A stretch of 64,000 nt of DNA from Gemmatimonadota bacterium (GCA_039588295.1 JBDHAB010000007.1:32001-96000); one strand, 5' to 3'. Shown: positions 24,040 through 49,720, counted from the first letter of the stretch. The notes: generated from the letters alone by a model not told the origin. Numbers and translations: made by a program.

Positions 24040-24062
24040 TCGGGCGGCCGGCCTAGATGATG

Positions 24063-24095: not shown

Positions 24096-24117
24096 ATGGC
24101 ATCGCAACCGCCGATGC

Positions 24118-24753: not shown

Positions 24754-24808
24754 GAGGATCGTGGGGCCCGCGGACGCCCGGACGGTGCGGACTCGAACCG
24801 TCGGTGGA

Positions 24809-25765: not shown

Positions 25766-25839
25766 GACCCCTCCTGGAATGCCGTATGCCGTCGGCCTAT
25801 CGTACGCTGCGCTTGCACCCCGTACAAGAGCGCCGGTCG

Positions 25840-27138: not shown

Positions 27139-27149
27139 GACCGGTGTCC

Positions 27150-30074: not shown

Positions 30075-31485
30075 GGCCGGCCTCCGCGAGGGCGGTGATT
30101 TTGTCCACGATTTCTTGCTGTGAGGGCAACACACCGCCCATCCGTCGGACGTGGTGAATCGGTGGCCCGTCCCTGACGTCGGCGTGGCTCAGCGCGAGCC
30201 GAAGCTCGTCTTCGAGTTGGCCGGCTCCAGCCTCGACGACGACGACGCCCCGCACTCCGTCCAGCAGGGGGAGCAGCCGGGTGATTGGGAATGGCCAGAG
30301 CGTGATCGGGCGGAACAATCCAGCCTTGATTCCCCCGTGTCGGAGCGCCCGTATGGCGCCTTTCGCCATCCGCGCCGGCGTGTTGCAGGCCACGACGATC
30401 CACTCGGCATCGTCGCAGTGGAACTCGTCCGCACGCTGTTCACGCTCAGTCATCCGCTCGTACTTTGCGTTCAGCTCGGCGTTCCGGGCCTCGAGCCGGG
30501 CTTCGTTGAGGTCAATCGACGAGTTCAACATCCCACGGTGAGCAGCGTCTCCGTACACCGCCCAACCCGGAAGTCCGGGCCGTGTGAGTTCTCGGGGGAG
30601 CGTGACGCGACCCGTCATCTGACCCATGTACCCGTCGCAGGCGAGGACCACGGGGTTGCGGTACTCGAACGCCAGGTCAAACGCGCGCATCGTCAAATCC
30701 AGCATCTCCTGGGGCGTGGATGGGGCAAAGACCAGTGCGTGCGTGTTGCCGTGGCCGAGCCCGCGGCACACCAGTTTGATGTCGCCCTGCTCGGGCGCGA
30801 TGTTGCCGAGCCCGGGACCGCCGCGCATGACGTTGATGAAGACACCCGGGATCTCGGCGCCGATCATGTAGGAAATCCCCTCTAACATGAGGCTGAACCC
30901 CGGGGACGACGTGAACGTCATGCATCGCATTCCGGCGCCCCCACAGCCATACATCATGTTGACCGTGGCGACTTCGCTGACCGCCTGCACGAATATGCCA
31001 TCGAGCTGCGGCAGCAGCTTGGCCATGAGTTCGGCGCCCTCGGTGGACGGGGTGATGGGGTAGCCGAAGAAGTGCCGGCAGCCCGCGAGCAGCGCGCCAA
31101 TGGCGGCTGCGTGGTTGCCCTTGAGCACCATGGGCTCGAGATGGGACAACGCGATGGTCGAATCGGGAACGGATTCCGGTTGGGTTCCGACGGTCTCGGT
31201 TCGATCGAAGTACGTGTACGGGTCAGACACCACCATGTCGATTCCGTCCAGCTCGGGCGGTGTTGCCATGAGGCCGTGCGGTTCGGGGCATGCCGAGATA
31301 CAGAGCCCGCACCCGTTGCACACCTCTAAGTCCACGGTAACCGGCGTGAAGCCGGTAACGGGATCGATTTCCGTCCCGAGCTCGATGCAGTGCTTAGGGC
31401 ACGCCTCGATGCACCTGCCGCACGCTTTGCAGAGGTGGGGAAAGAGGAACGGTTTTGGCCGGCTCTTGACCTTCGCAGTCACCAT
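30067..31485 (-). CDS. 2-oxoacid:ferredoxin oxidoreductase ferredoxin(delta)-alpha fusion (2-oxoisovalerate VOR type)
   Basis: Two CxxCxxCxxxCP motifs; GYPITPSTE, TSSPGFSLM, RGGPGLGNI. Confidence 0.9.
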   Translation of the reverse strand: MVTAKVKSRPKPFLFPHLCKACGRCIEACPKHCIELGTEIDPVTGFTPVTVDLEVCNGCGLCISACPEPHGLMATPPELDGIDMVVSDPYTYFDRTETVGTQPESVPDSTIALSHLEPMVLKGNHAAAIGALLAGCRHFFGYPITPSTEGAELMAKLLPQLDGIFVQAVSEVATVNMMYGCGGAGMRCMTFTSSPGFSLMLEGISYMIGAEIPGVFINVMRGGPGLGNIAPEQGDIKLVCRGLGHGNTHALVFAPSTPQEMLDLTMRAFDLAFEYRNPVVLACDGYMGQMTGRVTLPRELTRPGLPGWAVYGDAAHRGMLNSSIDLNEARLEARNAELNAKYERMTEREQRADEFHCDDAEWIVVACNTPARMAKGAIRALRHGGIKAGLFRPITLWPFPITRLLPLLDGVRGVVVVEAGAGQLEDELRLALSHADVRDGPPIHHVRRMGGVLPSQQEIVDKITALAEAGHV

Positions 31486-31489
31486 AGTA

Positions 31490-34924: not shown

Positions 34925-35014
34925 TTCAGTGTCGACGTTGGTACTGTTCCTAGGGATCGGAGCTGAGGGAGCCTCCTCGTTGGCAAATGTAACGCCCTTG
35001 CTGCTGGGTTGGCG

Positions 35015-36142
35015 ATGAATCGGACCGTCTTGGTGCTAGGAGGGTATGGCGGCGCGGGCCGTCGGATCACGGAGCTATTGGCGCGGGAGTCCGGGGTGCG
35101 GGTCGTGGTGGGTGGGCGGCAACTGGGCCCGGCGCAGGGATGGGCGGCGGAGCTCAACCGCGAGCTTCGAAGTGAGCGAGTCACCGCCGTCCTAGCGGAA
35201 GCTTCCAACCCGAGCCTGCTCAGGAAGGCGTTGGCCGACGTCGACCTCGTCGTGGTTGCGTCGAGCACGGCTGCACACGTTGCCACGGTGGCCCAAGCGG
35301 CGATCGAGGCCGAGGTGGATTACCTGGATATCCAATACTCCACGTCGAAGCTACGTGTGCTGGACTCGATGAGGGCTGAGATCGAGCGGCGAGGTCGCTG
35401 CTTCATTACCGACGGCGGCTTCCACCCGGGACTGCCTGCGGTTCTCATCCGCTTCGCCGCCGGCTTCCTGGACCGCCTGCAGCGGGCGAACGTGGCGGCT
35501 GTGGCGAGAATCGATTGGCGGAATCGCACGGTTGCAGCATCGACGAGCACGGAGTTTGCGGAGGAACTGCGGCATTACGAGCCGACGGTGCTCAAGCGAG
35601 GCACATGGGCCCGCTCCCGTTGGTGGGAACGCAAGCGATTCGCGTTTGGCAAGCCGTTCGGGACGTTGTCCACGGTGCCGATGCAACTCGGGGAGATGCG
35701 GAACCTCCCGCATCAGTTTCCCATGCTGGTCGATGCGGGATTCTACGTTGCCGGACTCAATTGGTTTGTCGACTATCTTGCGATGCCGTTCGGCATGCTG
35801 GCGCAGCGTCTGGCGGGTGATCGCGCCACGCCGGCGGTCGGGAAGCTGATCGGGTGGGGGCTGCGAACCTTCACAGTGCCCCCCTACGGGACCGTGGCAG
35901 TCGTCGAGGCGAGCGGGTGGAAGAAGGGGAGGTTGGTGGCAGTCCGAGGTCGGATCGCTCACGAGGACGGTTACGAGCTGACCGCGATCACGGTTGTGGG
36001 GTGTCTGCTCCAATACCTGGACGGTTCCGCAAGACGACCGGGGCTGTGGCATCAGGCGCACCTCGTCGATCCGCGCCGGCTCGTGACGGACTTGGAGCGC
36101 CTCGGCGCCACGGTCGAGTACGATCTGGAGGTCGAGACATGA
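35015..36142 (+). CDS. Saccharopine dehydrogenase / lysine 6-dehydrogenase-like NAD(P) oxidoreductase
   Basis: VLGGYGGAG Rossmann fold, VDYLDI, DGGFHPGLP, DGYELTA. Confidence 0.7.
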   Translation: MNRTVLVLGGYGGAGRRITELLARESGVRVVVGGRQLGPAQGWAAELNRELRSERVTAVLAEASNPSLLRKALADVDLVVVASSTAAHVATVAQAAIEAEVDYLDIQYSTSKLRVLDSMRAEIERRGRCFITDGGFHPGLPAVLIRFAAGFLDRLQRANVAAVARIDWRNRTVAASTSTEFAEELRHYEPTVLKRGTWARSRWWERKRFAFGKPFGTLSTVPMQLGEMRNLPHQFPMLVDAGFYVAGLNWFVDYLAMPFGMLAQRLAGDRATPAVGKLIGWGLRTFTVPPYGTVAVVEASGWKKGRLVAVRGRIAHEDGYELTAITVVGCLLQYLDGSARRPGLWHQAHLVDPRRLVTDLERLGATVEYDLEVET

Positions 36143-36186
36143 ACGCTCTACGGTGGGCGGGCATCATGGGAGAGAGACCGGTATGA
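36139..36186 (+). CDS. Putative 15-aa bridging peptide MNALRWAGIMGERPV
   Basis: GGAGG SD at 36127; ATGA overlap with the upstream stop and with the downstream start. Confidence 0.35.
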   Translation: MNALRWAGIMGERPV

Positions 36187-37529
36187 CGCAGCGCGCTGTC
36201 ATTTTGGGTGCGGCAGGACGTGACTTTCACAATTTCAACGTCTTCTTCAGGGGCAACCCCGAATATCACGTCGTCGCGTTCACTGCGACACAGATTCCGG
36301 ATATCGACGGACGCCGCTATCCGCCGGAGCTTGCCGGCGAGGGGTATCCAGACGGCGTACCGATCGAGGCCGAGCAGGATCTCAGCCGACTGATTCGCGA
36401 CAAGAGCGTAGACGTCGCCGTGTTTGCCTATAGCGATGTTTCGCACGAGCACGTGATGCACGTCGGTGCTCGGGCCATGGCGGCTGGGGCGAGCTTCCTG
36501 CTCCTGGGCCCACGGCAGACCATGCTCACGGCGAAGGTTCCGGTCATCTCGGTCTGTGCCGCGCGGACGGGAGCCGGAAAGAGCCAGACGAGTCGACGAG
36601 TAGCGGCCATCTTGCGGAGCAAGGGGAAGCGGATCGTCGTGGTGCGCCATCCGATGCCGTATGGCGACTTGACCCGGCAGGCCGTCCAGCGGTTTGCGAG
36701 CTTCGAAGATCTCGATGCACACCGCGTCACCATTGAAGAGCGAGAGGAGTACGAGCCGCACATTCGCGCGGGCTGCGTGGTGTATGCGGGGGTTGATTAC
36801 GAGCGGATTCTGCAGCGGGCCGAGCAAGAGGCGGACGTGATCATTTGGGACGGCGGCAACAACGACCTGCCCTTCTACAGGCCCGATCTCCACATTGTGG
36901 TGGTCGACCCCCATCGGGCGGACCACGCGAAGCGGTACCACCCAGGGGAAACGAATGTCCGGATGGCGGACGTCATCGTCGTGAACAAGGTGGGAACGGC
37001 CGGTTTGGCGGAAGTGGAGCAGGCACGGAGCGTAGCCATGGATCTCAACCCCGACGCGGTAGTCATCGAGGCGGCAAGCCCGATCTTGGTCGAGGAGCCA
37101 GCGTATATCCGTGGCAAGCGGGTACTGGTCATCGAAGACGGACCGACACTCACCCACGGTGAGATGGCGTACGGGGCGGGCTGGGTGGCTGCTCGCCGCT
37201 TCGGAGCGGCGGAGATCGTTGACCCGCGGCCCCATGCCGTCGGGTCGATTCGGGAGACGTTCGAGCGGTACCCCACGACAGGCGCGGTACTGCCCGCTAT
37301 GGGATACGGTACGCAGCAGGTGGATGAGTTGGCTCGAACCATTGCGGCGGTCCCTGCCGATCTCGTGTTGATTGCCACGCCAATCGATCTGCGCCATCTC
37401 ATTGATTTCGACAAGCCGACGCTTCGCGTACGTTATGAGCTTCAGGAGATCGGACGTCCGACTCTGGAGGACGTCCTCTCGGGCTTCGATGACGGAGCGG
37501 GCTCGGTCGAAGGAGTGGCGGCTCCGTAG
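36183..37529 (+). CDS. arcE: COG2403 P-loop protein (cDPG-synthetase-like); probable arginine synthetase ArcE
   Basis: GAAGRDFHNFN, FTATQIP, RTGAGKSQT, RHPMPYG, TIEEREEYEP, WDGGNND, EDGPTLTHG, LPAMGY. Confidence 0.75.
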   Translation: MTQRAVILGAAGRDFHNFNVFFRGNPEYHVVAFTATQIPDIDGRRYPPELAGEGYPDGVPIEAEQDLSRLIRDKSVDVAVFAYSDVSHEHVMHVGARAMAAGASFLLLGPRQTMLTAKVPVISVCAARTGAGKSQTSRRVAAILRSKGKRIVVVRHPMPYGDLTRQAVQRFASFEDLDAHRVTIEEREEYEPHIRAGCVVYAGVDYERILQRAEQEADVIIWDGGNNDLPFYRPDLHIVVVDPHRADHAKRYHPGETNVRMADVIVVNKVGTAGLAEVEQARSVAMDLNPDAVVIEAASPILVEEPAYIRGKRVLVIEDGPTLTHGEMAYGAGWVAARRFGAAEIVDPRPHAVGSIRETFERYPTTGAVLPAMGYGTQQVDELARTIAAVPADLVLIATPIDLRHLIDFDKPTLRVRYELQEIGRPTLEDVLSGFDDGAGSVEGVAAP

Positions 37530-37554: not shown

Positions 37555-38754
37555 GTGACAGCGACGAACGGGACAATCGGACTTCTGACCGGCGGTGGGG
37601 ATGTTCCCGGTCTCAATCCTGCCATTCGCGCCATTACGATTCGCGCGCTGCGGGAGGGCTACCGCGTGCTGGGAATTCGCCGAGGCTGGGCTGGCCTCAT
37701 CGATCTCGTTCCAGAGCGCGACGCTGATAACAGCATGCATGTGCAGATGCTGACGGAGGACGTCGTCAATCGTGCGGGTCGGACGGGAGGGACGTTCCTC
37801 CACACATCGCGCACGCGGCCGAGCCGGCTTCCCAAGCCGGTGGTGCCCGAACACCTCCGCGACCGGTACACGGATGAGATCAACGATGTGACACCGTCGG
37901 TGTTGAGGAACCTCGAGTTCCTTGGAATCGACTATCTCGTGCCGATCGGTGGCGACGATACGCTGAGCTACGGCCTGCGCCTGCACCAGGAGGGGGTGAA
38001 GGTCGTGGCGGTCCCCAAGACCATGGACAATGACGTTCCCGGTACGGACTACTGCATCGGGTTCAGCACGTGCGTGACCCGCACGATTGAGATGACCCAC
38101 AGCCTGCGGACCTCCGCGGGGTCACACGAGCGGTTCCTCGTCATCGAGGTGTTTGGGCGGTACGCGGGGTATACGGCGCTGCTGCCTACCATGGCGGGCG
38201 CGGCGGATCGGTGCCTGATTCCCGAACACCGCTTCCAACTAGAGCATCTCTGCGAGCTGCTCAGCTACGACCGCGGACGAAACCCGAGCAAGTACGCAGT
38301 GGTGCTCGTATCGGAGGGAGCCCGCATGACGGACGATGACGAAATGTCCTTCGAAGGTCAGGAACAGGATCAGTATGGTCATCGCAAGCTCGGGGGGATC
38401 GGCGATAAGGTCGCGTCGCGCCTCAAGCTTTGCTCACCGAGGTACAATCAGGGTCGGCGCGTGAACATCGTGAACCAGCGTCTTGGCTACCTGGTGCGGT
38501 GTGGCGATCCGGATGCGATGGACTCGATCGTGCCCATGGCCTTCGGCAACCTCGCGCTCGACCTGGTACTCGGAGGCACCTCCGGCCGCTTGGTGAGCCT
38601 GCGCAACGGTGTGTACGACAGTGTGCCGATCGACGTGGTGACGGGCCGCAAGAAGGTCATCGACGTCGACAAGTACTACAATGTCGAGCGTCTCCGACCC
38701 AACTACAAGACCTTCATCCGACAACCCCTGTTCATCATGACGAGCGATGTCTGA
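37555..38754 (+). CDS. pfkA: 6-phosphofructokinase, probably PPi-dependent
   Basis: TGGGDVPGLN, GGTFLHTSR, GGDD, PKTMDND, EVFGR, LGYLVR. Confidence 0.85.
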   Translation: MTATNGTIGLLTGGGDVPGLNPAIRAITIRALREGYRVLGIRRGWAGLIDLVPERDADNSMHVQMLTEDVVNRAGRTGGTFLHTSRTRPSRLPKPVVPEHLRDRYTDEINDVTPSVLRNLEFLGIDYLVPIGGDDTLSYGLRLHQEGVKVVAVPKTMDNDVPGTDYCIGFSTCVTRTIEMTHSLRTSAGSHERFLVIEVFGRYAGYTALLPTMAGAADRCLIPEHRFQLEHLCELLSYDRGRNPSKYAVVLVSEGARMTDDDEMSFEGQEQDQYGHRKLGGIGDKVASRLKLCSPRYNQGRRVNIVNQRLGYLVRCGDPDAMDSIVPMAFGNLALDLVLGGTSGRLVSLRNGVYDSVPIDVVTGRKKVIDVDKYYNVERLRPNYKTFIRQPLFIMTSDV

Positions 38755-39301
38755 ATCGCTGCGCGACGCGGTCGAGGAGCTCTGGCCCGAACTCGAGTGG
38801 ATTGAGTCGAAGGAGCTCCGCGAGCAAGTCACACAGACGTGGGTCCGGGCGTTCGAGCAGAGTCCGCTCGCGCCCGCCGACCTCAACCGGATTCCGTTCA
38901 CCCTTCTGGTGCCGAACTGTCCGGCCACCTTCATGGAGCACAAGCGCTGCGTCGTCCACATTGCACGGCGAGCGGCGGAATCGATGCACGAGTTCCTTGG
39001 GAGCGCGCTCCACATCGACCGGGACACAGTGATTGCCGGAGCGATTCTGGCCGATGTCGGCAAGTTGTTGGAATACGAGAAACGCGATGGAGAGACGCGA
39101 CAGAGCGCCCGCGGTCAGAGTCTCCGCCATCCGTTTACGGGTGTGGCCCTTGCCATGGCATGCCATGTGCCGGACGCGGTCTGTCACATCATTGCCACGC
39201 ATGCCGCCGAGGGTGACTTGGTGCAGCGGAGCACCGAGGCCTACATCGTCCATCATGCGGATTTCATGAGCTACTTGCCGTTCAAGAACCTCGCCGGCTG
39301 A
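38747..39301 (+). CDS. HD-superfamily metal-dependent phosphohydrolase (HD doublet reads AD)
   Basis: EH...GAILADVGKLLEY...LRHP...ATH...HHAD; overlaps the pfk stop by 8 nt. Confidence 0.75.
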   Translation: MSESLRDAVEELWPELEWIESKELREQVTQTWVRAFEQSPLAPADLNRIPFTLLVPNCPATFMEHKRCVVHIARRAAESMHEFLGSALHIDRDTVIAGAILADVGKLLEYEKRDGETRQSARGQSLRHPFTGVALAMACHVPDAVCHIIATHAAEGDLVQRSTEAYIVHHADFMSYLPFKNLAG

Positions 39302-39339
39302 CGGGCCGCATCCCGGGCAGACGGAAGGAGCCATCCGGA

Positions 39340-40719
39340 ATGTCACAGTCGATCACCGCCACCATGGCCCAGTGGGCCGCCGACCTCGGGTTCGACGATC
39401 TCGGAGCCGAAGCGATTCACGAATCGCGGCGCTACCTGCTCGACTCGCTGGGCTGTGCCTTTGGGGGATATCGCCAGGAGGACGCCCGCATCGCCCTGGA
39501 TGTGCTGGGCGAGATCGGCGGGTCCGGACTGGCGACGGTCCTCGGGAGCGGCGCGCGAACCGATCCCGTGTCGGCGTCGCTGGCGAATGCGCTCATGGTC
39601 CGGGTGATGGACTACAACGACATCTACTGGCAGCAGGACCCATCACATCCGTCGGATATCATCCCGGCCGCGATCGCCTGTGGCGAACGTGCCGGTCGGA
39701 CCGGTAAGGACCTGATCGTCGGCATCGTCCTCGGGCACGAATTCGAGATGCGGCTGTGCGAGGCGGCGTTTCCGGGCATCCGGGAACGCGGATGGCATCA
39801 CGCGACGCTCACGGCCTTCGTCTCGCCGATCGTGGCGGGTCGAATGCTCGGTCTGTCGTGGGATCGCATTCAGCATGCGATCGGGATCTCGGCGTCGCGA
39901 CACGCGACGTTCGGTGCAGTGACCGCTGGCAAGCTCACGATGATGAAGAACACGGTGGATCCGTTGGCGACGCAGAGCGGCGTACTCGCGGCGCTGTTGG
40001 CCGAACGCGGCTATACGGGTCCGGAGCACGTGGTGGATGGCAAGGAAGGACTGGTCCACTGCTTCGGGCCGGAGTGGAAGCTCGAGATTCTCACAGAGGG
40101 TTTGGGGCAGTCGTGGCGCATCGAGCGCTGCGGGATGAAAGCATTTCCGACCGAGGCGTTGACGCACGCCCCGATCTCCGCGGTGCTTGCCATCGTGCAG
40201 GAGCACGATCTGGCACCCGAGCAGGTGGCGACGGTGCGTATCCGCTCGCTTGCGCGCGCGGCCGATATCCTGGCAGACCCGAGCAAGTACGACCCGCGAA
40301 CAAAGGAGACCGCGGACCACAGTCTCCCGTATGTCGTCGCGGCTGCCCTGGTCGACCGTCAAGTCACGCCAGCCCAGTTTGAGTCCGACCGTATCATGGA
40401 CCCGAAGATTCGTGAGCAGCTCCGCAAGGTCGAAGTGGTGGCCGACCCCGAGATCGAGAAGGTGTTTCCGGAATTGCAGCGGGTAATTGTGCAGATCGAC
40501 ACGACGGACGGTCGTGCGTTGACGCAAACGTTGGACTACCCGAAGGGTGATCCGCGAAACCCACTCACCGACCATGAGATCGAAGAGAAGTTCGACGCGC
40601 TCGCGGCGCCGGTGCTCTCGCAGCGTGCGAGGGACCGGCTGAAGGCCGCCGTCTGGGAGCTGGAGTCCATGGACTCGATTTCAGACCTCATGGCGCTGTG
40701 CCGGGCCGACGTAACGTGA
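39340..40719 (+). CDS. prpD: MmgE/PrpD-family dehydratase
   Basis: LDSLGCA, RVMDYND, SHPSD, GWHH, K-AFP-EALTH, ETADHSLPY, PKGDPRNPL. Confidence 0.88.
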   Translation: MSQSITATMAQWAADLGFDDLGAEAIHESRRYLLDSLGCAFGGYRQEDARIALDVLGEIGGSGLATVLGSGARTDPVSASLANALMVRVMDYNDIYWQQDPSHPSDIIPAAIACGERAGRTGKDLIVGIVLGHEFEMRLCEAAFPGIRERGWHHATLTAFVSPIVAGRMLGLSWDRIQHAIGISASRHATFGAVTAGKLTMMKNTVDPLATQSGVLAALLAERGYTGPEHVVDGKEGLVHCFGPEWKLEILTEGLGQSWRIERCGMKAFPTEALTHAPISAVLAIVQEHDLAPEQVATVRIRSLARAADILADPSKYDPRTKETADHSLPYVVAAALVDRQVTPAQFESDRIMDPKIREQLRKVEVVADPEIEKVFPELQRVIVQIDTTDGRALTQTLDYPKGDPRNPLTDHEIEEKFDALAAPVLSQRARDRLKAAVWELESMDSISDLMALCRADVT

Positions 40720-40785
40720 TCCCGCAGTGGCGGGGCGGAGGCGATGGCCGTGGCCGCGGTATCGCCTCCCCTGGGTGAGGGCATT

Positions 40786-42729
40786 ATGGGACAGACCGTC
40801 GTTGAGAAGATCGCCCAGCAGCACATGACAGCCGGTCCCGAGCGGTCGATCTGCACGGGAGACGTCGTGTCGCTTCGGCCTCGGTACGTGATGACCCATG
40901 ACAACACGGCCGCGGTGATGAAGAAGTTCCAATCCATTGGTGCGACGCGGATTTGGGATCCTCGGCAGCCGGTCTTCGCACTCGATCACGACATCCAGAA
41001 CACCTCGGAGACGAATCTCGCCAAGTATCGGGAGATCGAGGCGTTCGCGCGCGCGCACGGCGTCGACTTCTACCCGGCCGGGACGGGCATCGGACACCAG
41101 ATCGTCGTGGCTCGTGGGTATGCGGTACCGGGCGCGCTCGTCGTGGCGTCGGATTCCCATTCCAACATGTACGGCGCGGTTGGGGCCCTCGGGACACCGG
41201 TCGTCAGGACGGACGCTGCCGCCATCTGGGCGACCGGCGAATTCTGGTGGCAGATTCCCAGAACGGTACAGGTCGTGTTGCACGGTCACTTGCGCGATGG
41301 CGTGACAGGGAAGGATGTCATCATTACGCTGTGTGGACTCTACAACGACGAGGTACTGAACGCGGCGGTCGAGTTTGCAGGGCCGGCGATCGCGGGCCTC
41401 AGCATGGACGCGCGCATGACGATCGCCAACATGACCACCGAGTGGGGTGCGTTGGTCGGCTGGTTTCCAGTGGACGATGTGACCCTTCGGTACCTCGCTC
41501 GCCGCAAGGAGCTGCTGGACGCGCAAGGGGAGACACGGTATACGGACGAAGACCTGGCGCAGTGGCGCGAAGCGCCGCCAGCCCCCGATCCGGAAGCGGC
41601 GTACGCGGGGCGCATCGACCTGAACTTGTCCGACGTCAGTCCGCACGCGTCGGGCCCTGACAGTGTGCACGTGATGCGTTCCGTCGCGGATATCGAACAG
41701 GATCGGGTCGTGATACAGAAGGCCTATCTGGTCTCGTGTGTCAACAGTCGCGTCGAAGATCTGGAAGCCGCCGCGCGTGTGATGCGCGGGAAGCGCGTCG
41801 CCGATGGGGTCGAGTTCTATGTCTCGGCGGCGAGCCGCGAGGTGGAGGAAGCCGCGGCGGAATCCGATGCGTGGGGCGCGTTGTTGGAAGCGGGGGCGAG
41901 GCCGCTGCCCCCCGGCTGCGGCCCGTGTATCGGCTTGGGTGCCGGGCTGCTCGAGTCGGGTGAGGTCGGCATCTCCGCCACGAACCGCAACTTCAAGGGT
42001 CGCATGGGGTCGAGGGACGCCCGGTGCTATCTGGCCAGCCCGGAGGTGGTGGCCGCCTCAGCGGTCGCGGGATACATCACCGGGCCCCGTGCGTCCGACG
42101 GACGCCAACCGGAGCGCCGGTATGCCGAGCCGGCGACCGCAGCCTCCGCAGCCGAAGCGGTAAAGATCCAGGAGGGATTCCCGGAGCGAGTCTCCGGGCG
42201 GCTCGTCTTCGTGCCGCAGGACAGCCTCAATACCGACGGGATCTACGGCAAGGACTACACGTATCGCGAGGGCATGACACCGGGGGAAATGGCAGGTGTG
42301 GTCATGGAGAACTACGATCCCACGTTCTCCGAGCGGGTGCGGCCGGGAGACATCCTGGTGGGTGGCTGGAACTTCGGCACAGGGTCGTCGCGCGAACAGG
42401 CCGTGACGGCGCTCCAGGCGAAAGGGCTTCCGCTGGTGATCGCGGGAAGTTTCTCGCAGACGTACCTGCGCAACGCGTACAACAACGGGTATCCCTGCAT
42501 CGCGTGCGACGCGTTGGTGAGACGGTTGAAGGAGTTACTCACCGCTGCCGTCACCGCGCGCGAGCTCACCGTGATTCCAGGTGACGAACTGCTCGTAGAT
42601 TTCGCGCGGAGCACGTTGCGCTACCGCGATGAGGTATTCGCGTTTCCACCGTTGGGGGCCGTACCGCAATCGCTGGTCATCGCGGGTGGGATCGAGAATC
42701 AAATTCGGAACAAGCTGGGAGTGGGTTGA
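40786..42729 (+). CDS. lysF: Single-chain, fungal Lys4/LysF-type homoaconitase
   Basis: THDN, LDHDIQN, GIGHQ, ASDSHSN, RTDAAAIWATG-WWQIP, SCVNSR, CGPCIGLG, NRNFKGRMG, NTDGIY, NFGTGSSREQA. Confidence 0.85.
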   Translation: MGQTVVEKIAQQHMTAGPERSICTGDVVSLRPRYVMTHDNTAAVMKKFQSIGATRIWDPRQPVFALDHDIQNTSETNLAKYREIEAFARAHGVDFYPAGTGIGHQIVVARGYAVPGALVVASDSHSNMYGAVGALGTPVVRTDAAAIWATGEFWWQIPRTVQVVLHGHLRDGVTGKDVIITLCGLYNDEVLNAAVEFAGPAIAGLSMDARMTIANMTTEWGALVGWFPVDDVTLRYLARRKELLDAQGETRYTDEDLAQWREAPPAPDPEAAYAGRIDLNLSDVSPHASGPDSVHVMRSVADIEQDRVVIQKAYLVSCVNSRVEDLEAAARVMRGKRVADGVEFYVSAASREVEEAAAESDAWGALLEAGARPLPPGCGPCIGLGAGLLESGEVGISATNRNFKGRMGSRDARCYLASPEVVAASAVAGYITGPRASDGRQPERRYAEPATAASAAEAVKIQEGFPERVSGRLVFVPQDSLNTDGIYGKDYTYREGMTPGEMAGVVMENYDPTFSERVRPGDILVGGWNFGTGSSREQAVTALQAKGLPLVIAGSFSQTYLRNAYNNGYPCIACDALVRRLKELLTAAVTARELTVIPGDELLVDFARSTLRYRDEVFAFPPLGAVPQSLVIAGGIENQIRNKLGVG

Positions 42730-42777
42730 CCGTCGTAGCCGCTCTCGAGCGCTGAAGGTTGGGAGGAAGAGGCTGAA

Positions 42778-43965
42778 ATGGGGAAACACACCGTCGTGAC
42801 GATGCCGGGTGATGGGATCGGGGCCGTCGTGCTACCGGAGGCCATTCGGGTGCTTCAGGCAGTCGGGTTCGACGCGGACTATGTGCACGCCGACATCGGG
42901 TGGCAATTCTGGGTCACCGAGGCCAATCCGCTCCCGGAGCGCACGATCGATCTGCTGAAAGAACACAAGCTCGGTCTGTTTGGAGCGATCACCTCCAAGC
43001 CTAAAGCCGAAGCACGTGCGGAGCTGCGGCCGGAGCTGCGTGACGCCGGGTACGAGTATTTCAGCCCGATCGTGGGCATGCGGCAGATCTTCAATCTCGA
43101 CGTGTGCATTCGGCCCTGTCGCTCGTTCCCGGGTAACCCGCTCAATTTCGTGCGCCAGCAACCCGGTGGCGGTGCCGAGGAGCCCAAGGTCGATGCCGTG
43201 GTGTTCCGACAGAATACCGAGGGGCTCTACTGCGGCATCGAGTGGACCGACCCGCCGCAAGTGGTCCGCAATGCCCTCGGCATGCACCCGAAATACCGAC
43301 CGTTCGCGGACGTTCCGGGCGAGGAGTTGGCGCTGTCGGTCCGGATGTTCACCCGCAACGCCTGCCGACGGATCGTCCGCGCCGCGTTCGCATACGCGCA
43401 GCAGCACGGCTACCGGTCAGTGACGATCTGCGAGAAGCCGAACGTGTTGCGCGAAACCTCCGGGATGATGGAAGAGATTGCGCGGGACGTACAGCGGGAA
43501 TTCCCCGACATCCAACGTTGGTCGACCAACATCGACGCACAAATGATGTGGCTGACCAAGAATCCCGAAGACTATGGTGTGATCGTGGCGGGGAATCTGT
43601 TCGGCGACATCATCTCCGACGCCTTTGCCGGATTGGTTGGTGGCCTTGGCTTTGCGTGTTCGGGTAACATCGGCGATGACGTGGCCGTGTTCGAACCGAC
43701 CCACGGATCGGCGCCGAAGTATGCCGAGTTGGATCCACCCATCGTGAACCCCATCGCGATGACGTTGAGCGCGGCGATGCTGCTCGACCACGTGGGTGCC
43801 AGCGAGCAGGCCGGTCGTGTGCGGCAAGCCGTTGCGGCTGTCGTTCAACAGGGGCAGGTACGGACCTACGATATGTTGCGCCTGGCAGGCGGGCCGGAAG
43901 TGACGAAAGCCGGTGCCGCGACGACCGCGCAGATGACCGACGCGATCATCAGCGCGCTCGGATAG
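42778..43965 (+). CDS. Beta-decarboxylating dehydrogenase, homoisocitrate-dehydrogenase-like
   Basis: PGDGIG, FGAITS, YFSPIVGMR, RQNTEGLY, KPNV, NLFGDIISD, FEPTHGSAP, NPIA. Confidence 0.8.
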   Translation: MGKHTVVTMPGDGIGAVVLPEAIRVLQAVGFDADYVHADIGWQFWVTEANPLPERTIDLLKEHKLGLFGAITSKPKAEARAELRPELRDAGYEYFSPIVGMRQIFNLDVCIRPCRSFPGNPLNFVRQQPGGGAEEPKVDAVVFRQNTEGLYCGIEWTDPPQVVRNALGMHPKYRPFADVPGEELALSVRMFTRNACRRIVRAAFAYAQQHGYRSVTICEKPNVLRETSGMMEEIARDVQREFPDIQRWSTNIDAQMMWLTKNPEDYGVIVAGNLFGDIISDAFAGLVGGLGFACSGNIGDDVAVFEPTHGSAPKYAELDPPIVNPIAMTLSAAMLLDHVGASEQAGRVRQAVAAVVQQGQVRTYDMLRLAGGPEVTKAGAATTAQMTDAIISALG

Positions 43966-43976
43966 GAGGACACGTC

Positions 43977-45197
43977 ATGACGGTCCGCGGTGTTGCGGGT
44001 CGAACGGGCGACGACGCGCGTTCTGATCTCCAGGTGACCGTGGAGCTCCGGCGGTCCGGCGGACTCGGAATCACGCTTGCCTCCAAGGTGGAGGCGCTAT
44101 ATGGACAGTCGATCGTCGAACTGACGGAGGGGCTGCTCTCGGAACTCGGAGTCGAGCACGCGGCGATTGCGATCGAGGATCAGGGTGCGTTGCCGTTTGT
44201 CATCGCCGCGCGTCTCGAGACAGCCGTGCGGCGTGCCGGCGCTCCGGCCCGCGGAGACGGTCGCCCACCGTGCACCGTCCCGCGGCGCGCGGCATCCCCA
44301 CAGGCGCGTGTTCGGCGCTCTCGGCTCTATCTGCCCGGCAACGAGCCCAAGTTCCTCGTCAACGCCGGTCTGCACCGGCCCGATGCGGTGATTCTCGATC
44401 TCGAAGATTCAGTCCATCCGGCGGAGAAGGACGCCGCGCGCATCTTGGTGCGGAATGCGCTTCGCTGTGTCGACTTCCTGGGTGCCGAGCGGATGGTGCG
44501 GATCAATCAACTGCCCGCCGGGCTCGAGGATCTTGAAATGGTCGTCCCTGAGCACCCTGACCTCGTGCTCATTCCCAAGACCGAGCGACCGGACGCGGTG
44601 CGCCGTGTGCATGAGCAGATTCGCACCATTCAGGATCGGGAGAAGGACGCCGACCCGATTTGGCTGATGCCGATTCTCGAGTCGGCGTTGGGCGTGGAGC
44701 ATGCGTTCGACATCGCCCGAGCGGTGGACTCGGTCGCCGCACTCACCATTGGTCTCGAGGACTACACGGCCGATCTCGGGGTCGCGAAGACTCGGCATGG
44801 CGAGGAGTCGCTCTTTGCGCGCATGCGGCTCGTGAACGCGGCGCGCGCGGCGGGGGTGCAGGCGATCGACTCGGTGTACGGCGATATTGCTGATGTCGAC
44901 GGGCTCGCGGCGTGGGGCGCGCGCTCGCGTGCCCTGGGGTTTGACGGCATGGGGTGCGTTCATCCGCGGCAGATCGACGTGGTCCACCAGGCGTTTGCAC
45001 CGCCGCAGGCGGAGCTCGACAAGGCGTTGCAGATCGTTGCCGCCTTCGAGCAGGCGCAGGCACAGGGACTGGCGGTCGTGAGCCTTGGCACGCGCATGAT
45101 CGATCCTCCGGTGGTGTTGCGGGCGCAGCGGCTCGTGGATCGAGCGCGTCGATCCGGACTGCTCCCCGAAACGGCTGATCGCGGGGGGGCGCCATGA
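43977..45197 (+). CDS. citE: Citrate-lyase acyl-carrier (CitD-like) fused to lyase beta subunit (CitE)
   Basis: N-terminal ~90 aa AG...RSD...IEDQGALPFVIAARLETA (CitD-like); RRSRLYLPGN, LDLEDSV, VRIN, ILES, GLEDY, HPRQI, MIDPP. Confidence 0.85.
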   Translation: MTVRGVAGRTGDDARSDLQVTVELRRSGGLGITLASKVEALYGQSIVELTEGLLSELGVEHAAIAIEDQGALPFVIAARLETAVRRAGAPARGDGRPPCTVPRRAASPQARVRRSRLYLPGNEPKFLVNAGLHRPDAVILDLEDSVHPAEKDAARILVRNALRCVDFLGAERMVRINQLPAGLEDLEMVVPEHPDLVLIPKTERPDAVRRVHEQIRTIQDREKDADPIWLMPILESALGVEHAFDIARAVDSVAALTIGLEDYTADLGVAKTRHGEESLFARMRLVNAARAAGVQAIDSVYGDIADVDGLAAWGARSRALGFDGMGCVHPRQIDVVHQAFAPPQAELDKALQIVAAFEQAQAQGLAVVSLGTRMIDPPVVLRAQRLVDRARRSGLLPETADRGGAP

Positions 45198-46771
45198 GCG
45201 CCGTCGGCTTCGCATCCAATGATGCGGGGCGGCGCGTGCCCAAGGTCGTCAACGGACGGAAGCAGGCGCCCTACCAGGGGGTGGGTGGGTACGATCCGCA
45301 CGCCACGAAGTGCGCACCGCCGGTCCGTTCCTGCCGGGATTATCCGCTGAACGGAGACAAGTGTGTGTCGAGTCTTCGGGCCGCCCTCGAGCAGTGCGGT
45401 CTCGCAGACGGCATGGTGATCTCTACCCATCATCACTTGCGCAATGGGGACCGGGTGGCGGTTGCCGCGCTCGAGGCCGCCGCGGCGCTGGGCGTGAAGG
45501 ACCTCATGTGGTTCCCCAGTGCCTCCTTTCCTTGCCATGCACCGGTGATCGAGCTCATGGATCGCGGCGTGGTGCATCACATCGAAGGCAGCATGAACGG
45601 ACCGTTGGGCGACTACTGCTCTCGAGGCAAGATGCGCGGTCTAGGCGTTCTTCGGTCGCACGGTGGGCGCTGGCAGGCGATCCAGGACGGGGAGGTCAAG
45701 ATCGATGTCGCGGTCATTGCCGCGCCGACCGCCGACCCCTTCGGTAACGCCGACGGGTCGCACGGGCCCTCGGCGTGCGGCTCGTTGGGGTTCGCGTTGG
45801 CGGATTCGATCTACGCCGACCATGTGATCGTCGTGACCGACAACATCGTTCCGTTTCCCTGTGTGCCGTGGCAAATCCAGGGGAACAATGTCGACTGTGT
45901 GGTCCAAGTCGACTCGATTGGTGATCCCTCGAAGATCGTGTCCGGGACCACGCAGATTACCAAGAGTCCGGATCGTCTGTTGATTGCCGAGTACGTCGCG
46001 CGGTTCCTGCGCGACGTCGGCATTATGCGAGACGGATTCTCGTTTCAGGCCGGTGCTGGCGGTATTGCCCTCGCCTTCGTGCAGTTCCTGAAGGGAATGA
46101 TGCAACGGGCGGGCGTGAAGGCGCGTTTCGTGCGTGGTGGATCCACGCAATATCTCGTGGAGTTGCTGAACGAAGGCCTGGCGGACTACATCCTGGACGG
46201 TCAGACGTTCGACCTCGCGGGTGTCGCGTCGATCGCGTCGGATCCGCGCCATATCGCGACGTCGCCATTCACGTCCTACAATTACCACGGGAAGGGGAAC
46301 TTCGCGTCGATCGTCGACGCCGCCGTGCTTGGCGCTACCGAGGTCGACGTGAGCTTCAACGCGAACGTGGTGACCCACTCGGACGGTTTCCTGCTTCACG
46401 GGATCGGGGGATGGCAAAACTGCCTGTTCGCGGGGTGCACGATTCTGGCGGTGCCGGCGTTTCGCGACCGGATCCCCGTCATCGTGGATGAAGTCACGAC
46501 GCTGTGCGGGCCATCCCAATTGATCGACGTGGTTGTAACCGAGCGCGGAATCGCGATCAACCCGCGGCGGGCGGATTTGCTCGAGCGGGTGCAGGGGTCC
46601 GATCTCCCGATTCGACCGCTTGAGGAGATCAAGGACGAGGTCCAGGCTATTCTGGGTGGCCGCCCGGAGCAGCCACGCGTAACCGACCGACCTGTCGCCG
46701 TGATCAAGTGGGTCGACGGGACGGTGTTGGACACCGTGTGGCAGGTCGACACCGCGGATCGGAGAGGATGA
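45194..46771 (+). CDS. citF: Citrate lyase alpha subunit (family II CoA/ACP transferase)
   Basis: DGMVISTHHHLRNGD, RSHGGR, CGSLG, FSFQAGAGG, LGATEVD, NANV, GIGG, VVTERGIAINP; ATGA overlap with citDE. Confidence 0.88.
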   Translation: MSAVGFASNDAGRRVPKVVNGRKQAPYQGVGGYDPHATKCAPPVRSCRDYPLNGDKCVSSLRAALEQCGLADGMVISTHHHLRNGDRVAVAALEAAAALGVKDLMWFPSASFPCHAPVIELMDRGVVHHIEGSMNGPLGDYCSRGKMRGLGVLRSHGGRWQAIQDGEVKIDVAVIAAPTADPFGNADGSHGPSACGSLGFALADSIYADHVIVVTDNIVPFPCVPWQIQGNNVDCVVQVDSIGDPSKIVSGTTQITKSPDRLLIAEYVARFLRDVGIMRDGFSFQAGAGGIALAFVQFLKGMMQRAGVKARFVRGGSTQYLVELLNEGLADYILDGQTFDLAGVASIASDPRHIATSPFTSYNYHGKGNFASIVDAAVLGATEVDVSFNANVVTHSDGFLLHGIGGWQNCLFAGCTILAVPAFRDRIPVIVDEVTTLCGPSQLIDVVVTERGIAINPRRADLLERVQGSDLPIRPLEEIKDEVQAILGGRPEQPRVTDRPVAVIKWVDGTVLDTVWQVDTADRRG

Positions 46772-46953
46772 CAATGCTCGAACTGCAGGAACGCCGCGAT
46801 GTATCGCCCGTGTGCCCGCACTGCGATCAAGCGATTGGTTTGCTGTGGTTTCAGTCGCTGGCGGGGATGTTGGGGCGCCGCTATGTGTACTTCTGCCCGA
46901 GCTGCCACCGGGTACTGGGTGTGTCCCATCGCAAGGGATTCTGGATGGGCTGA
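46768..46953 (+). CDS. Small zinc-ribbon protein (CPHC...CPSC), 61 aa
   Basis: ATGA overlap with the citF stop, GGAGAGG upstream, two CxxC motifs. Confidence 0.7.
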   Translation: MTMLELQERRDVSPVCPHCDQAIGLLWFQSLAGMLGRRYVYFCPSCHRVLGVSHRKGFWMG

Positions 46954-47083: not shown

Positions 47084-48130
47084 ATGGCAGGGATCGTAGG
47101 CTACGGGGCGTTCGTTCCCCGCAACCGGATCACGTCGGAGGAGATCGCCCGGCAGTGGGGCAAGGATCCCGAAAGTATCCGTCGAGGTCTGCTCCTCGAA
47201 GAGAAGTCGGTGCCGGGGATCGACGAAGACACGATCACGATCTCCGTGGCGGCGGGCCGGGCGGCACTCGAGCGCGCGGGGGTCAACCCGCAGCGAGTCG
47301 GCGCCCTGTATATCGGGTCGGAATCCCATCCCTATGCCGTCAAGCCGAGCGGGACCGTTGTTGCGGAAGCCCTGGGGATCGGACCCGAGGTCCACATAGC
47401 CGACTTGGAGTTCGCGTGCAAGGCGGGCACGGAGGCCATGTTCGTTGCCTTCGGACTGGTGGAATCGGGGCGGGTGGAATACGCGATGGGTATCGGCGCC
47501 GACACCTCACAAGGCGCCCCGAACGATGCGTTGGAGTTCTCGGCATCGGCGGGCGGTGCGGCGTTTCTGTTCGGCGGGACGAACCTGCTCACCGAGGTGC
47601 TCGAAACGTACAGCTACACGTCCGACACGCCCGATTTCTGGAGACGTGAGGGTGAATTTTATCCGCGGCACAGCGGGCGTTTCACGGGGGAGCCGGCCTA
47701 CTTCAAGCATGTCACCGCCGCGACCCGCGGCATCTTAGAAAGGTCCGGGCTCCGCCCCCAAGACTTTCGTTACGTCGTGTTTCACATGCCCAACGGGAAG
47801 TTCCCACTCTCGGTGGGCAAGCAGCTCGGGTTCACGAAGGAGCAGCTCGAGGTGGGGTGGGTCGTTCCCACCATGGGCAATACGTACTCTGGCTCCTCGC
47901 CAACCGGGCTGGCGGCAATCCTGGACGTGGCGGCGCCTGGCGATCTGGTGCTCATCACGTCGTTCGGCTCCGGGGCGGGGAGCGACTCGTTCGTCCTCCG
48001 AGCCACCGAGCTCCTCCCCGAACGGCGCAGCCGCGCACCCACGGTGCGCTCGATGCTTGAAGGCAGGAGGCGATACCTCACGTACGGTGAGTACGCGAAG
48101 TATCGCGAGAAGATCTTGGTGAACGATTGA
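47084..48130 (+). CDS. Archaeal-type hydroxymethylglutaryl-CoA synthase
   Basis: AGGAGG SD; GIVGYG, GSESHPYAVKP, DLEFACKAGT, DTPDFWRR, RFTGEPAYF, FHMPNGKF, GNTYSG, SFGSGAGSD. Confidence 0.88.
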   Translation: MAGIVGYGAFVPRNRITSEEIARQWGKDPESIRRGLLLEEKSVPGIDEDTITISVAAGRAALERAGVNPQRVGALYIGSESHPYAVKPSGTVVAEALGIGPEVHIADLEFACKAGTEAMFVAFGLVESGRVEYAMGIGADTSQGAPNDALEFSASAGGAAFLFGGTNLLTEVLETYSYTSDTPDFWRREGEFYPRHSGRFTGEPAYFKHVTAATRGILERSGLRPQDFRYVVFHMPNGKFPLSVGKQLGFTKEQLEVGWVVPTMGNTYSGSSPTGLAAILDVAAPGDLVLITSFGSGAGSDSFVLRATELLPERRSRAPTVRSMLEGRRRYLTYGEYAKYREKILVND

Positions 48131-48176
48131 TCCCGGCTCGCGAACCGCAGCCGACAGCTAACACGAGGAGGTGTGC

Positions 48177-49325
48177 ATGCGAGAGGTAGCGATCGTCGCG
48201 GCCGGGATGACCCGCTTCGGCGAGCTCTGGCAATCGAGCCTACGCGACCTCTTTGTCGAGGCGGCGTCCGAGGCACTGCGGAATGCCGGCACCGACCGAC
48301 TCGACGCGATCTACGTGGGCAACATGTCCGGCGGGCAGTTCGTGGGGCAGGAACATCTTGGCCCACTGATGGCGGATCATCTCGGGATGGCGGGGGTGGC
48401 GTCGACGCGTGTCGAGTCCGCCTGCGCCTCGGGAGGCGTGGCGCTCAGGACCGCGGTGCTCGAGGTGGCGTCCGGTATGAGTGACCTGGTGTTGGCAGCC
48501 GGAGTGGAGAAGATGAACGACGGCGTGGACGTGACTAACGTGCTCGCCACCGCCGCCGATCAGGAGACCGAAGTCTATCACGGTATCACGTTCCCTGGGC
48601 TCTACGCGATGATTGCCCGAGCCCACATGAAGGCATATGGGACCACCGAAGAGGATCTGGCCGCTGTCTCCGTAAAGAACCACCGCCACGGAGCGCTCAA
48701 TCCCAAGGCACAGTTCCAAACAGAGGTGACGCCAGAGCAGGTCATGCAGTCCTCGATGGTCGCCGAGCCGCTTCGGCTGCTGCACTGCTCGCCGGTGAGC
48801 GACGGTGCGGCCGCCGTCCTGGTGTGTTCGCTGGAGCGCGCGCGCGAGTTCACTGACAAGCCGGTGAAGATCAGGGGAAGTGGCCTGGCCACCGCCTCGA
48901 TGGCACTCGCCGATCGTCCTGACCCGGCGTTTCTGGATGCCGTGAGCCTCGCCGCCAGTCGTGCATACAAAGCCGCAGGTATCGGACCGGCCGATGTGCA
49001 GGTTGCCGAAGTCCATGACTGCTTCACCATTGCCGAATTGTGCGCGATAGAGGCGCTGTGTCTCACAGAGCGCGGAGCCGCGGGTGAAGCCACGCGTGCG
49101 GGCGAGACGGCGCTCGGGGGGCGCGTCCCCATCAACACGAGCGGAGGGCTCAAGTCGAAAGGCCACCCTGTTGGAGCGACGGGGGTGGCGCAGGCTATCG
49201 AGATCGTGGAGCAGCTACGGGGCGAGGCAGGTGATCGTCAGGTGGAGGGTGCTTCACTTGGCCTCTGTCAGAACATGGGCGGGTCGGGCGCAAGCTCGGT
49301 GGTCCACATCCTCGAGAGAGTCTAA
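48177..49325 (+). CDS. Archaeal/SCP-x-type acetyl-CoA acetyltransferase (thiolase)
   Basis: [48 protein letters not shown]. Confidence 0.88.
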
Positions 49326-49327
49326 TC

Positions 49328-49720
49328 ATGCCGAGTCCGAGATACTGGAGAGAGATCCCGAATCGCTACCGACTCGAGGCGCGGCGCTGCGGCAGTTGCA
49401 GTCGTGTCGTGTTTCCGGCGCGTCGTATCTGTCCCGGCTGTGGTGGCAGCGAGTTCGAGACCATCGCGCTGTCGCACCGGGGAACGGTCGTGACATCGAC
49501 CGTCGTCCATGTCGCTCCCGCAGAGTTTCTGATGGAGGCTCCCTATGCCATCGCCGTGGTGGAGACTCCGGAGGGCGCGCGCCTCATGGTCCAGGTAACG
49601 GACTGCGATCCTGCGGAAGTGGAGCCCGGGACTGCAGTCGACTTGGAGTTCCGGAAGATCCGTCGTGAGGGAAACGGCGGCATCCTGTGCTACGGGTACA
49701 AAGGGGTGCCGGCTGGCTGA
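49328..49720 (+). CDS. DUF35 zinc-ribbon/OB-fold scaffold protein
   Basis: RYWREIPNRYRL, CGSC...FPARRICPGC, PYAIAVVE, FRKI...YGYK. Confidence 0.88.
   Translation: MPSPRYWREIPNRYRLEARRCGSCSRVVFPARRICPGCGGSEFETIALSHRGTVVTSTVVHVAPAEFLMEAPYAIAVVETPEGARLMVQVTDCDPAEVEPGTAVDLEFRKIRREGNGGILCYGYKGVPAG

Follow-up and report, generated by a model that had tools for sequence, protein, structure and literature searches.

A conserved six-gene bacterial cassette that may carboxylate 2-oxoadipate and cleave it to 2-oxoglutarate and acetate

The window analysed here is a stretch of 64,000 nucleotides from a Gemmatimonadota bacterium (GCA_039588295.1, JBDHAB010000007.1:32001-96000) that carries, between positions 38747 and 46953, seven co-directional open reading frames (ORFs) on the plus strand, with intergenic gaps of 38, 66, 48, 11, -4 and 2 nt. 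A preliminary description of this DNA, made from the sequence alone, had read them as one unit that would turn 2-oxoadipate and CO2 into acetate and 2-oxoglutarate, and the ORF positions and family calls that it gave hold in the translations and in NCBIfam and Pfam scans. The first gene (38747..39301) encodes an HD-fold protein of 184 aa that weakly passes TIGR00277 and tracks with the lyase genes. It is followed by a MmgE/PrpD-family protein (39340..40719; Pfam N and C domains), proposed to act as a hydro-lyase between cis-homoaconitate and (S)-homocitrate, and by a single-chain Lys4/LysF-type homoaconitase of 647 aa (40786..42729; TIGR00139) that would interconvert homoisocitrate and cis-homoaconitate. 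The fourth gene (42778..43965) encodes a beta-decarboxylating dehydrogenase with a homoisocitrate-type loop (S-P-I-V), an NADP-type pocket and all catalytic residues. The fifth (43977..45197) encodes a CitD-CitE fusion, in which a vestigial acyl carrier protein (ACP) domain is joined to a C-C lyase (Pfam ACP and HpcH), proposed as homocitryl-coenzyme A (CoA) lyase, and the sixth (45194..46771) a CitF-type CoA-transferase, identified by TIGR01584 and by its identity to E. coli CitF, which may be an acetyl-CoA:homocitrate CoA-transferase. The motifs LDHDIQN, RTDAAAIWATG..WWQIP and YFSPIVGMR are found in the translations; the last resembles a fungal Lys12 motif, as the preliminary description had it. 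For the aconitase, the start at 40786 is the more likely one: in most relatives the alignment begins near residue 15 of the longer ORF. The genes may be co-transcribed, and a scan for promoters and terminators gave no signal beyond chance. Among plasmids, no dehydrogenase of the cassette type turned up, and a single sequence matched at 37%. Close homologues are named from Gemmatimonadales, and the host genome (G000 below) is 96% complete.

Among 60 relatives of the host, the aconitase is present in nine, and in all nine the six genes stand in identical order. A scan of GTDB revealed at least 594 stretches with genes for aconitase relatives; the best 80 of these at least 594 loci were examined, and they come from Gemmatimonadota, Acidobacteriota, Latescibacterota and Rhodothermales. 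The full six-gene set is found in 58 of the 80, and in 54 of the 56 with enough flanking sequence, the exceptions being L071, which has no prpD, and L108. In the phylum of genome G067, the aconitase occurs in 31/401 genomes, and 28 loci of low guanine-plus-cytosine content (low-GC loci) from this phylum hold the dehydrogenase (27), the HD gene (24), prpD (20), citDE (17) and citF (17) in reshuffled order. CitF is encoded there by 26/30 aconitase-positive and 2/45 aconitase-negative genomes, the negatives having been chosen by handle number. The genome sets used here and below partly overlap and include kin, and their counts are not independent. The preliminary description had staked its proposal on conservation of the cluster in other genomes, and the counts from the relatives and the well-flanked loci bear this out for six of its seven genes. 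Kept together by bacteria of soil and sediment from several groups, these six genes are a real, strongly conserved and uncharacterised pathway module.

The aconitase, which is predicted to interconvert homoaconitate and homoisocitrate, scores 719.7 bits against the fungal homoaconitase model TIGR00139 (cut-off 529.9), and its three Fe-S cluster cysteines and its DSH, NRN and GSSRE motifs are invariant in 110/110 copies. The dehydrogenase belongs to the Iso_dh family and passes no equivalog cut-off (AksF2, 252.5 vs. 540 bits; ICDH-HICDH, 138.5 vs. 680; Icd TIGR00183, 177 vs. 567). Its best model is the broad-range AksF, and NCBIfam gave no fungal Lys12 model for comparison. In 100/100 copies, Ile replaces Asn115 of Icd, a residue that binds isocitrate (PMC3521221), while Ser113 is kept. 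An alignment with the homoisocitrate dehydrogenase (HICDH) of Thermus places Ile at the same position, and shows an Asp-Ile cofactor loop of the NAD type; the cassette enzymes have no such loop and keep the equivalents of the NADP residues Lys344, Tyr345 and Tyr391 in 100/100. A literature search returned no paper on Arg85 of HICDH, and PDB searches have HICDH of S. pombe (3ty3) among their matches. In a tree, the dehydrogenase branches separately from Icd and from IDH3-like and LeuB-like proteins, in a clade of its own, and the dehydrogenases of all sampled cassette variants fall into a single clade (support 99, 23 rows). The aconitase and dehydrogenase trees are both quick searches with Shimodaira-Hasegawa-like approximate likelihood ratio (SH-aLRT) support only, and include no named fungal Lys4 or Lys12. 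Because the host genome has a separate citrate synthase (GltA), AcnA and NADP-dependent Icd, the cluster is not its housekeeping tricarboxylic acid (TCA) set. In a third aconitase-family protein (G000:C1:118865-120907), which lies below all cut-offs, a long N-terminal extension precedes the large-subunit domain.

Three genomes (G207, G223 and G327) serve as a natural experiment. Their locus keeps only the dehydrogenase and the aconitase, none of them encodes CitF, and no PrpD-like gene was found with the cassette query in the two that were searched, G207 and G223. Each carries a lysW-synthase-lysX-lysY-lysZ-lysJ cluster from which aconitase and dehydrogenase genes are missing. Their other aconitases are of the mitochondrial type, accompanied in two genomes by LeuC in a leu operon, while G327 has the mitochondrial type only. 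Other dehydrogenase paralogues were not listed; with that limit, the cassette-type aconitase and dehydrogenase appear to be the only dedicated candidates for these steps, which is the strongest evidence on their substrate and ties the pair to homoisocitrate. The aconitases and dehydrogenases of these LysW-only genomes nest among the full-cassette enzymes (support 97 and 99 in the quick trees). In the phylum of G067, LysX is found in 14/30 Lys4-positive and 1/45 Lys4-negative genomes. The arrangement in the three genomes is that of the fungal upper aminoadipate pathway, where aconitase takes water from homocitrate and the formation of homoisocitrate falls to Lys4 (PMC3556520). A further locus, L190:7757-13746 (G079, Gemmatimonadaceae), combines the lyase cassette with a synthase-lysX-Y-Z-J cluster that has no aconitase or dehydrogenase of its own, in a genome without Lat; in G079 the cassette pair may serve both directions.

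The lyase module resembles citrate lyase and departs from it in ways that bear on its carrier. The CitE part is 39% identical to E. coli CitE and scores 258 bits on the citE model (cut-off 443) and 143 bits on RipC. CitF is likewise 39% identical to its E. coli counterpart and scores 481 bits on TIGR01584 (cut-off 501); it has invariant family-specific motifs, both CitE and CitF carry invariant family-specific substitutions, and the variant CitF in L288 passes the CitF cut-off. The ACP part of the fusion is an MdcD/CitD domain in which Arg occupies the position of E. coli CitD Ser14, the residue that bears the phosphoribosyl-dephospho-CoA cofactor. In 82 genome copies this position is Arg (78), Gly (2), Gln (1) or Lys (1) and never Ser, and among 38 metagenome copies a single one has Ser. 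CitG is above its cut-off in 0/51 carriers, and CitC, CitG and CitX were not found in G000, the only genome searched in full for CitC and CitX. The fused domain, which the preliminary description had called an ACP, is probably not a working carrier. Isolated CitF and CitE are known to accept CoA esters, and with the carrier Ser lost and CitG absent, the lyase is probably carrier-free and uses free CoA esters.

The PrpD-like protein scores 60.5 bits against the PrpD model TIGR02330 (cut-off 458), and in 91/91 copies it keeps the PrpD-type H-P-S-D motif with its catalytic His and the P-x-E motif, both of which are missing from iminodisuccinate (IDS) epimerase. Judged by such scores and residues, the cassette falls outside canonical citrate lyase, PrpD and Icd. 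The place of the PrpD-like protein in the pathway would follow from stereochemistry. Homocitrate synthase and aconitase use (R)-homocitrate. The CitE model is named for a pro-3S lyase, and exchanging the oxaloacetate arm of (3S)-citryl-CoA for a 2-oxoglutarate arm would give (S)-homocitryl-CoA by Cahn-Ingold-Prelog ranking; AcnA could then not feed such a lyase, and a dedicated second hydro-lyase would be needed. Lys4/LysF is unable to dehydrate homocitrate, homocitrate is strongly favoured at equilibrium, and PrpD catalyses a syn elimination of water from (2S,3S)-2-methylcitrate (PMC3556520), a geometry that would map to (S)-homocitrate.

The HD-fold protein narrowly passes the HDIG domain model TIGR00277 (29.8 vs. 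27.6 bits), and its structure model has a predicted local distance difference test (pLDDT) score of 90. Among 92 copies, the HD motif has Ala (74), Ile (17) or Cys (1) in place of its first His; the other metal ligands are kept, and H65, D103, H128, H152, H169 and D172 are invariant in 92/92. Family scans and fold searches returned generic HD relatives only, the best fold match being the HD domain of YhaM (Z 15.7, root-mean-square deviation 3.1, 162 residues aligned). Among lyase-bearing loci, the gene stands beside the lyase in 62/68 and 17/17, and the 20-kb loci of the three LysW-only genomes do not contain it. Speculatively, this accessory protein might serve the reverse direction through CO2 hydration, lactone opening or CoA-ester repair.

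Several modules of the cassette are interchangeable. In genome G520 and in 3/80 metagenome loci, SucC-like and SucD-like ligase subunits with a citryl-CoA lyase stand in place of CitDEF, and two further loci combine CitF with citryl-CoA lyase. An ATP-driven ligase joined to a lyase is a cleavage device, as established for citryl-CoA synthetase and lyase, and this variant, which in G520 lies beside pcd, points to the cleavage direction. HacAB-type aconitases stand in for Lys4 in some loci. A second hydro-lyase is present in 66/68 and 17/17 lyase-bearing loci, and in 3/80 metagenome loci a fused aconitase with an R-D-F-G-G motif occupies the place of a missing PrpD, no locus holding both. Copies of this protein (L303:11791-13623, L322:2030-3853, L328:11835-13631 and L238:490-2346) have the altered motifs R-D-F-G-G, F-D-C-N-P and G-T-H, and G079, which has no PrpD-like gene, encodes one elsewhere in its genome (61-64% identity). 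The fused protein is a candidate homocitrate hydro-lyase.

Co-occurrence links the cassette with lysine catabolism. Lysine 6-aminotransferase (Lat, TIGR03251) is over its cut-off in 10/10 cassette-bearing genomes and 0/40 cassette-free relatives, the latter including G021, a genome marked as unpublished, as well as in 8/10 other carriers and 6/10 low-GC carriers. In another sample, made up of 251 genomes from the phylum, it is found in 11/14 aconitase-positive and 9/237 aconitase-negative genomes, with agreement in four families, and in 6/9 of the positives when the genus of the window is set aside. Piperideine-6-carboxylate dehydrogenase (Pcd) is encoded by 13/14 non-acidobacterial carriers, 2/31 cassette-free relatives and 1/3 LysW-only genomes. 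In the host genome both Lat and Pcd lie away from the cassette. Beside the variant cassette of G520, pcd and the gene of a class III aminotransferase stand in divergent orientation, and in G403 pcd is about 4 kb from citF.

With the queries used, the absences that the preliminary description had given for the window extend to the whole host genome, which has no PrpB, a single citrate synthase and no LysW, LysX, LysY or LysZ. In particular, neither a LysW pathway nor a convincing homocitrate synthase was found to account for the cluster as ordinary biosynthesis: the sole DRE-TIM candidate is LeuA-like, scores 189 against 413 bits, lies below every synthase cut-off and is 28-31% identical to the synthases of LysW clusters. 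Of the diaminopimelate (DAP) pathway, LysA is over its cut-off, DapA scores 141 vs. 206 and DapF is weak, and searches with E. coli queries did not find DapB or DapD. It is possible that the host is auxotrophic for lysine or that the forward direction has a role in it. LysA, found in 43/51 genomes, was rejected as proof of a DAP pathway, given that the host has LysA without DapB.

We give a probability of roughly 0.68 to a seven-carbon cleavage fed by 2-oxoadipate, that is, to the first half of the fungal lysine pathway run backwards. In the host genome, lysine would reach 2-oxoadipate through Lat, Pcd and a candidate aminoadipate transaminase. The dehydrogenase would then carboxylate 2-oxoadipate with CO2 and NADPH to (2R,3S)-homoisocitrate, the Lys4-type aconitase would dehydrate this to cis-homoaconitate, and the PrpD-like hydro-lyase would hydrate the latter to (S)-homocitrate. 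CitF would form (S)-homocitryl-CoA at the expense of acetyl-CoA, releasing acetate, and CitE would split it into acetyl-CoA and 2-oxoglutarate, so that free CoA would cycle instead of an ACP-bound cofactor. The predicted net reaction is 2-oxoadipate + CO2 + NADPH -> 2-oxoglutarate + acetate. The CO2 would land in C1 of 2-oxoglutarate and be kept only if 2-oxoglutarate goes to glutamate; the lysine skeleton would yield an anaplerotic C5 compound or a precursor of glutamate, and the route would run alongside the usual one through SucA and glutaryl-CoA. In its fuller form, the proposal describes a widespread lysine catabolic pathway that carboxylates 2-oxoadipate and splits it via (S)-homocitrate, with three lyase types, two second hydro-lyases and two homoaconitases as interchangeable modules, an HD-fold accessory, and fungal Lys4 in the same clade; for this form we see slightly better than even odds. 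The conversion suggested in the preliminary description has gained the support of the LysW-only genomes and of the lysine-catabolism link. Its role as a fermentation step fitting the surrounding genes is unsupported, since the flanking genes are lineage-specific and SucA is encoded by 38/40 cassette genomes. With SucA and a GcdH-like enzyme present in the host, where HglS was not found, the route is not required for the disposal of 2-oxoadipate and is better read as anaplerotic or redox-sparing.

A number of observations weigh against this reading. Acidobacteria, the largest carrier group sampled, have Lat in 0/10 genomes and Pcd in 1/32, which leaves their source of 2-oxoadipate unexplained, and the SucA and GcdH-like enzyme of the host offer 2-oxoadipate another exit. 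No complete known lysine synthesis was found in the host genome, which leaves a synthetic role open. The best PDB matches of the PrpD-like protein are IDS epimerase (E 3.5e-40), IRG1 and cis-aconitate decarboxylase, PrpD itself following at 1e-17 to 1e-11. Replacement of the PrpD-like protein by an aconitase-fold protein weakens the stereochemical argument, so (S)-homocitrate as the lyase substrate is not a secure assignment. NADP specificity was rejected as proof of direction, as the NADP pocket is also found in the LysW-only genomes. Aspergillus LysF acts on citrate (0.99 U/mg) and isocitrate (1.88 U/mg) as well as on homoisocitrate (7.5 U/mg; PMC3556520). The co-occurrence counts, moreover, overstate the independence of the genomes behind them. 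Finally, L247:7259-10049 (G211) and L248:9125-11913 (G263) hold citDE-citF with no other cassette genes nearby, downstream of ATP-binding cassette (ABC)-transporter and ADP-ribosylglycohydrolase-like genes, as labelled from the sequence.

An unlikely alternative, though the one that survives best, is that the cassette runs forward, from acetate or acetyl-CoA and 2-oxoglutarate through homocitrate to 2-oxoadipate for lysine or aminoadipate synthesis. It would suit a host without a complete DAP pathway (DapA below its cut-off, DapB and DapD not found) or a LysW pathway, orthologues of its aconitase and dehydrogenase serve LysW synthesis elsewhere, and Lat is missing from the acidobacterial carriers sampled, as is Pcd from all but one. 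However, a CoA-transferase/lyase cycle hydrolyses no thioester and so lacks the pull of a synthase, and the variant with an ATP-dependent ligase is of the cleavage type. The aminoadipate-activating LysX, LysZ and LysY are also absent here (LysX in 1/51; a Lys2-type reductase was not searched for), and the genomes that make lysine through LysW carry a separate synthase.

A six-carbon version of the same chemistry, which we consider improbable, would make the cluster an ATP-independent citrate lyase system, used in citrate fermentation or as a reverse TCA segment (2-oxoglutarate + CO2 -> isocitrate -> citrate -> acetate + oxaloacetate). Such a role was proposed for a similar pair, CitF and a CitE-CitD fusion, in the Ignavibacterium album genome, where the pair was read as citrate lyase of fermentation or of the reverse TCA cycle and no lysine synthesis was found (PMC3362086). 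The identity of CitE and CitF to the E. coli proteins, the nearness of CitF to its equivalog cut-off, the Icd-like NADP pocket, the retained Ser113 and the partial activity of LysF on citrate and isocitrate (PMC3556520) would all fit. Against this stand the loss of Asn115 in every copy, the Lys4 type of the aconitase and the separate AcnA and Icd of the genome. In addition, a second hydro-lyase is needless for citrate, yet nearly all lyase-bearing loci have one, and the correlations with Lat, Pcd and LysX would go unexplained.

The cassette might instead shorten other 2-oxoacid chains, such as 2-oxopimelate and its longer homologues, or act on alkylmalates such as citramalate, with homocitrate as one substrate among several or not the principal one, which is also improbable. 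The replacement of Lys4 by HacAB-type aconitases, the broad range of AksF, the invariant substitutions in CitE and CitF, the CstA-family transporter of 8/20 low-GC loci and the Acidobacteria without lysine enzymes are in keeping with such a function. The LysW-only genomes, on the other hand, tie the aconitase-dehydrogenase pair to homoisocitrate, the citryl-CoA-lyase variant implies a tricarboxylate, and both physical and statistical links point to lysine catabolism. Less probable still is that the PrpD-like protein works as an epimerase or decarboxylase, in the manner of IDS epimerase or cis-aconitate decarboxylase, so that homoaconitate would be consumed in a different reaction and the lyase would act on another CoA ester: the PDB matches that outrank PrpD suggest it, but the PrpD-type motifs are kept, an aconitase-family hydro-lyase takes the place of this protein with 0 loci holding both, and the CitE part scores far higher on citE than on RipC. 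The methylcitrate cycle was rejected because no PrpB is present; its 2-methylisocitrate is a tertiary alcohol, which the cassette dehydrogenase is unable to oxidise.

The seventh gene of the run (46774..46953, plus strand) encodes a small Zn-ribbon protein of 59 aa, an accessory with weak Zn-ribbon matches only, whose start at 46774 is favoured by a ribosome-binding-like sequence there. It accompanies the cassette in 2/9 relatives and 1/80 loci, and the unit first described is accordingly reduced to its six core genes. The Zn-ribbon, pfk (3/80), GTPase-like (4/80), saccharopine-dehydrogenase-like and 3-hydroxy-3-methylglutaryl (HMG)-CoA synthase/thiolase/DUF35 genes were all rejected as members, each occurring in 1-4/80 loci, and across phyla no additional gene recurs beside the cassette. 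Directly downstream (47084-49720, plus strand) lie genes for an archaeal-type HMG-CoA synthase, which passes NF003274 and TIGR00748, a thiolase and DUF35; they are linked with the cassette in 7/9 relatives and only 4/80 wider loci. Upstream, a saccharopine-dehydrogenase-like NADP domain protein (35009-36142, plus strand), for which a PDB search gave no relevant relative, precedes the cassette in 6/9 relatives. The conserved GTPase-like protein (36153-37529, plus strand) matches no NCBIfam family and presumably resembles the arginine synthetase or cyclic diphosphoglycerate synthetase-like family. Farther away, an amino-acid catabolism block (18084-33751) holds genes for two glutamate dehydrogenases, an alanine dehydrogenase-like protein, a CoA-transferase, a Vor-type 2-oxoacid:ferredoxin oxidoreductase and an ADP-forming acetate-CoA ligase-like protein. 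Among 20 low-GC loci, a CstA-family transporter lies within eight (e.g., L158:5650-7284) and an acyl-CoA synthetase beside five, for which 2-oxoacid or peptide uptake and acetate recycling are possible roles. Elsewhere in the host genome, G000:C1:35060-48218 is a benzoyl-CoA-reductase-like cluster (activator, dehydratase, thiolase and short-chain dehydrogenase/reductase) next to a LeuB-like gene and a DRE-TIM synthase, and a cluster resembling it flanks the cassette at L303:681-9784.

In the literature searched, neither a homocitrate lyase nor the six-gene set is described, although most subscription journals lie outside its coverage and such an absence is unproven. If a seven-carbon cleavage of 2-oxoadipate is correct, it would add a new fate of this compound beside oxidative decarboxylation in hundreds of genomes, given the at least 594 GTDB stretches with a relative of the aconitase, and heterotrophs could channel carbon from lysine to the glutamate family while taking up CO2. 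Three new activities would be involved: a homocitrate lyase without a carrier, a hydro-lyase for (S)-homocitrate and a carboxylase that acts on 2-oxoadipate with NADPH. Annotations of these genes as lysine biosynthesis or as citrate lyase, with the reverse TCA cycle that the latter might imply, would be corrected, and a carrier-free enzyme of the citrate lyase type and an NADP-type homoisocitrate dehydrogenase would be useful in engineering C6 and C7 dicarboxylates. The cassette is built from known enzyme families, and all its reactions are accessible to assays of the purified enzymes and to simple labelling.

The closest known system is the upper alpha-aminoadipate pathway of fungi (Lys20/21, aconitase with Lys4/LysF, and Lys12), together with the LysW pathway of Thermus, with which the cassette shares the Lys4-type homoaconitase and the HICDH-like loop. 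The fungal pathway likewise employs two different hydro-lyases for one isomerisation (PMC3556520). The cassette differs from it in having a CoA-transferase/lyase pair rather than a synthase, a PrpD-family protein rather than aconitase and an NADP-type rather than NAD-type pocket, in the predicted use of (S)- rather than (R)-homocitrate, and in its link with lysine catabolic genes. With citrate (pro-3S)-lyase CitDEF of E. coli and Klebsiella, it shares CitE and CitF homologues and the CitD fold; in contrast, its CitD forms a fusion with CitE and carries Arg at the Ser14 position, there is no CitC, CitG or CitX, and the genes are embedded with those of a homoaconitase and an HICDH-like enzyme. 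The 2-methylcitrate cycle (PrpC, PrpD, AcnB/AcnD and PrpB) also pairs a PrpD-family hydro-lyase with an aconitase and thereby bypasses aconitase stereochemistry (PMC3556520), whereas the cassette lacks PrpB, has no PrpC in its locus and misses the PrpD cut-off widely. The reductive TCA segment has the same reaction logic, and one cassette variant uses ligase subunits and citryl-CoA lyase, but the cassette route would be one CH2 longer, linear rather than cyclic, and found in heterotrophs that keep SucA. Finally, the upper steps of Lat/Pcd lysine catabolism to 2-oxoadipate are shared and present in the host genome. Known lysine routes decarboxylate 2-oxoadipate, through 2-oxoglutarate dehydrogenase (OGDH) and GcdH or through HglS, whereas the cassette route would carboxylate it and yield 2-oxoglutarate.

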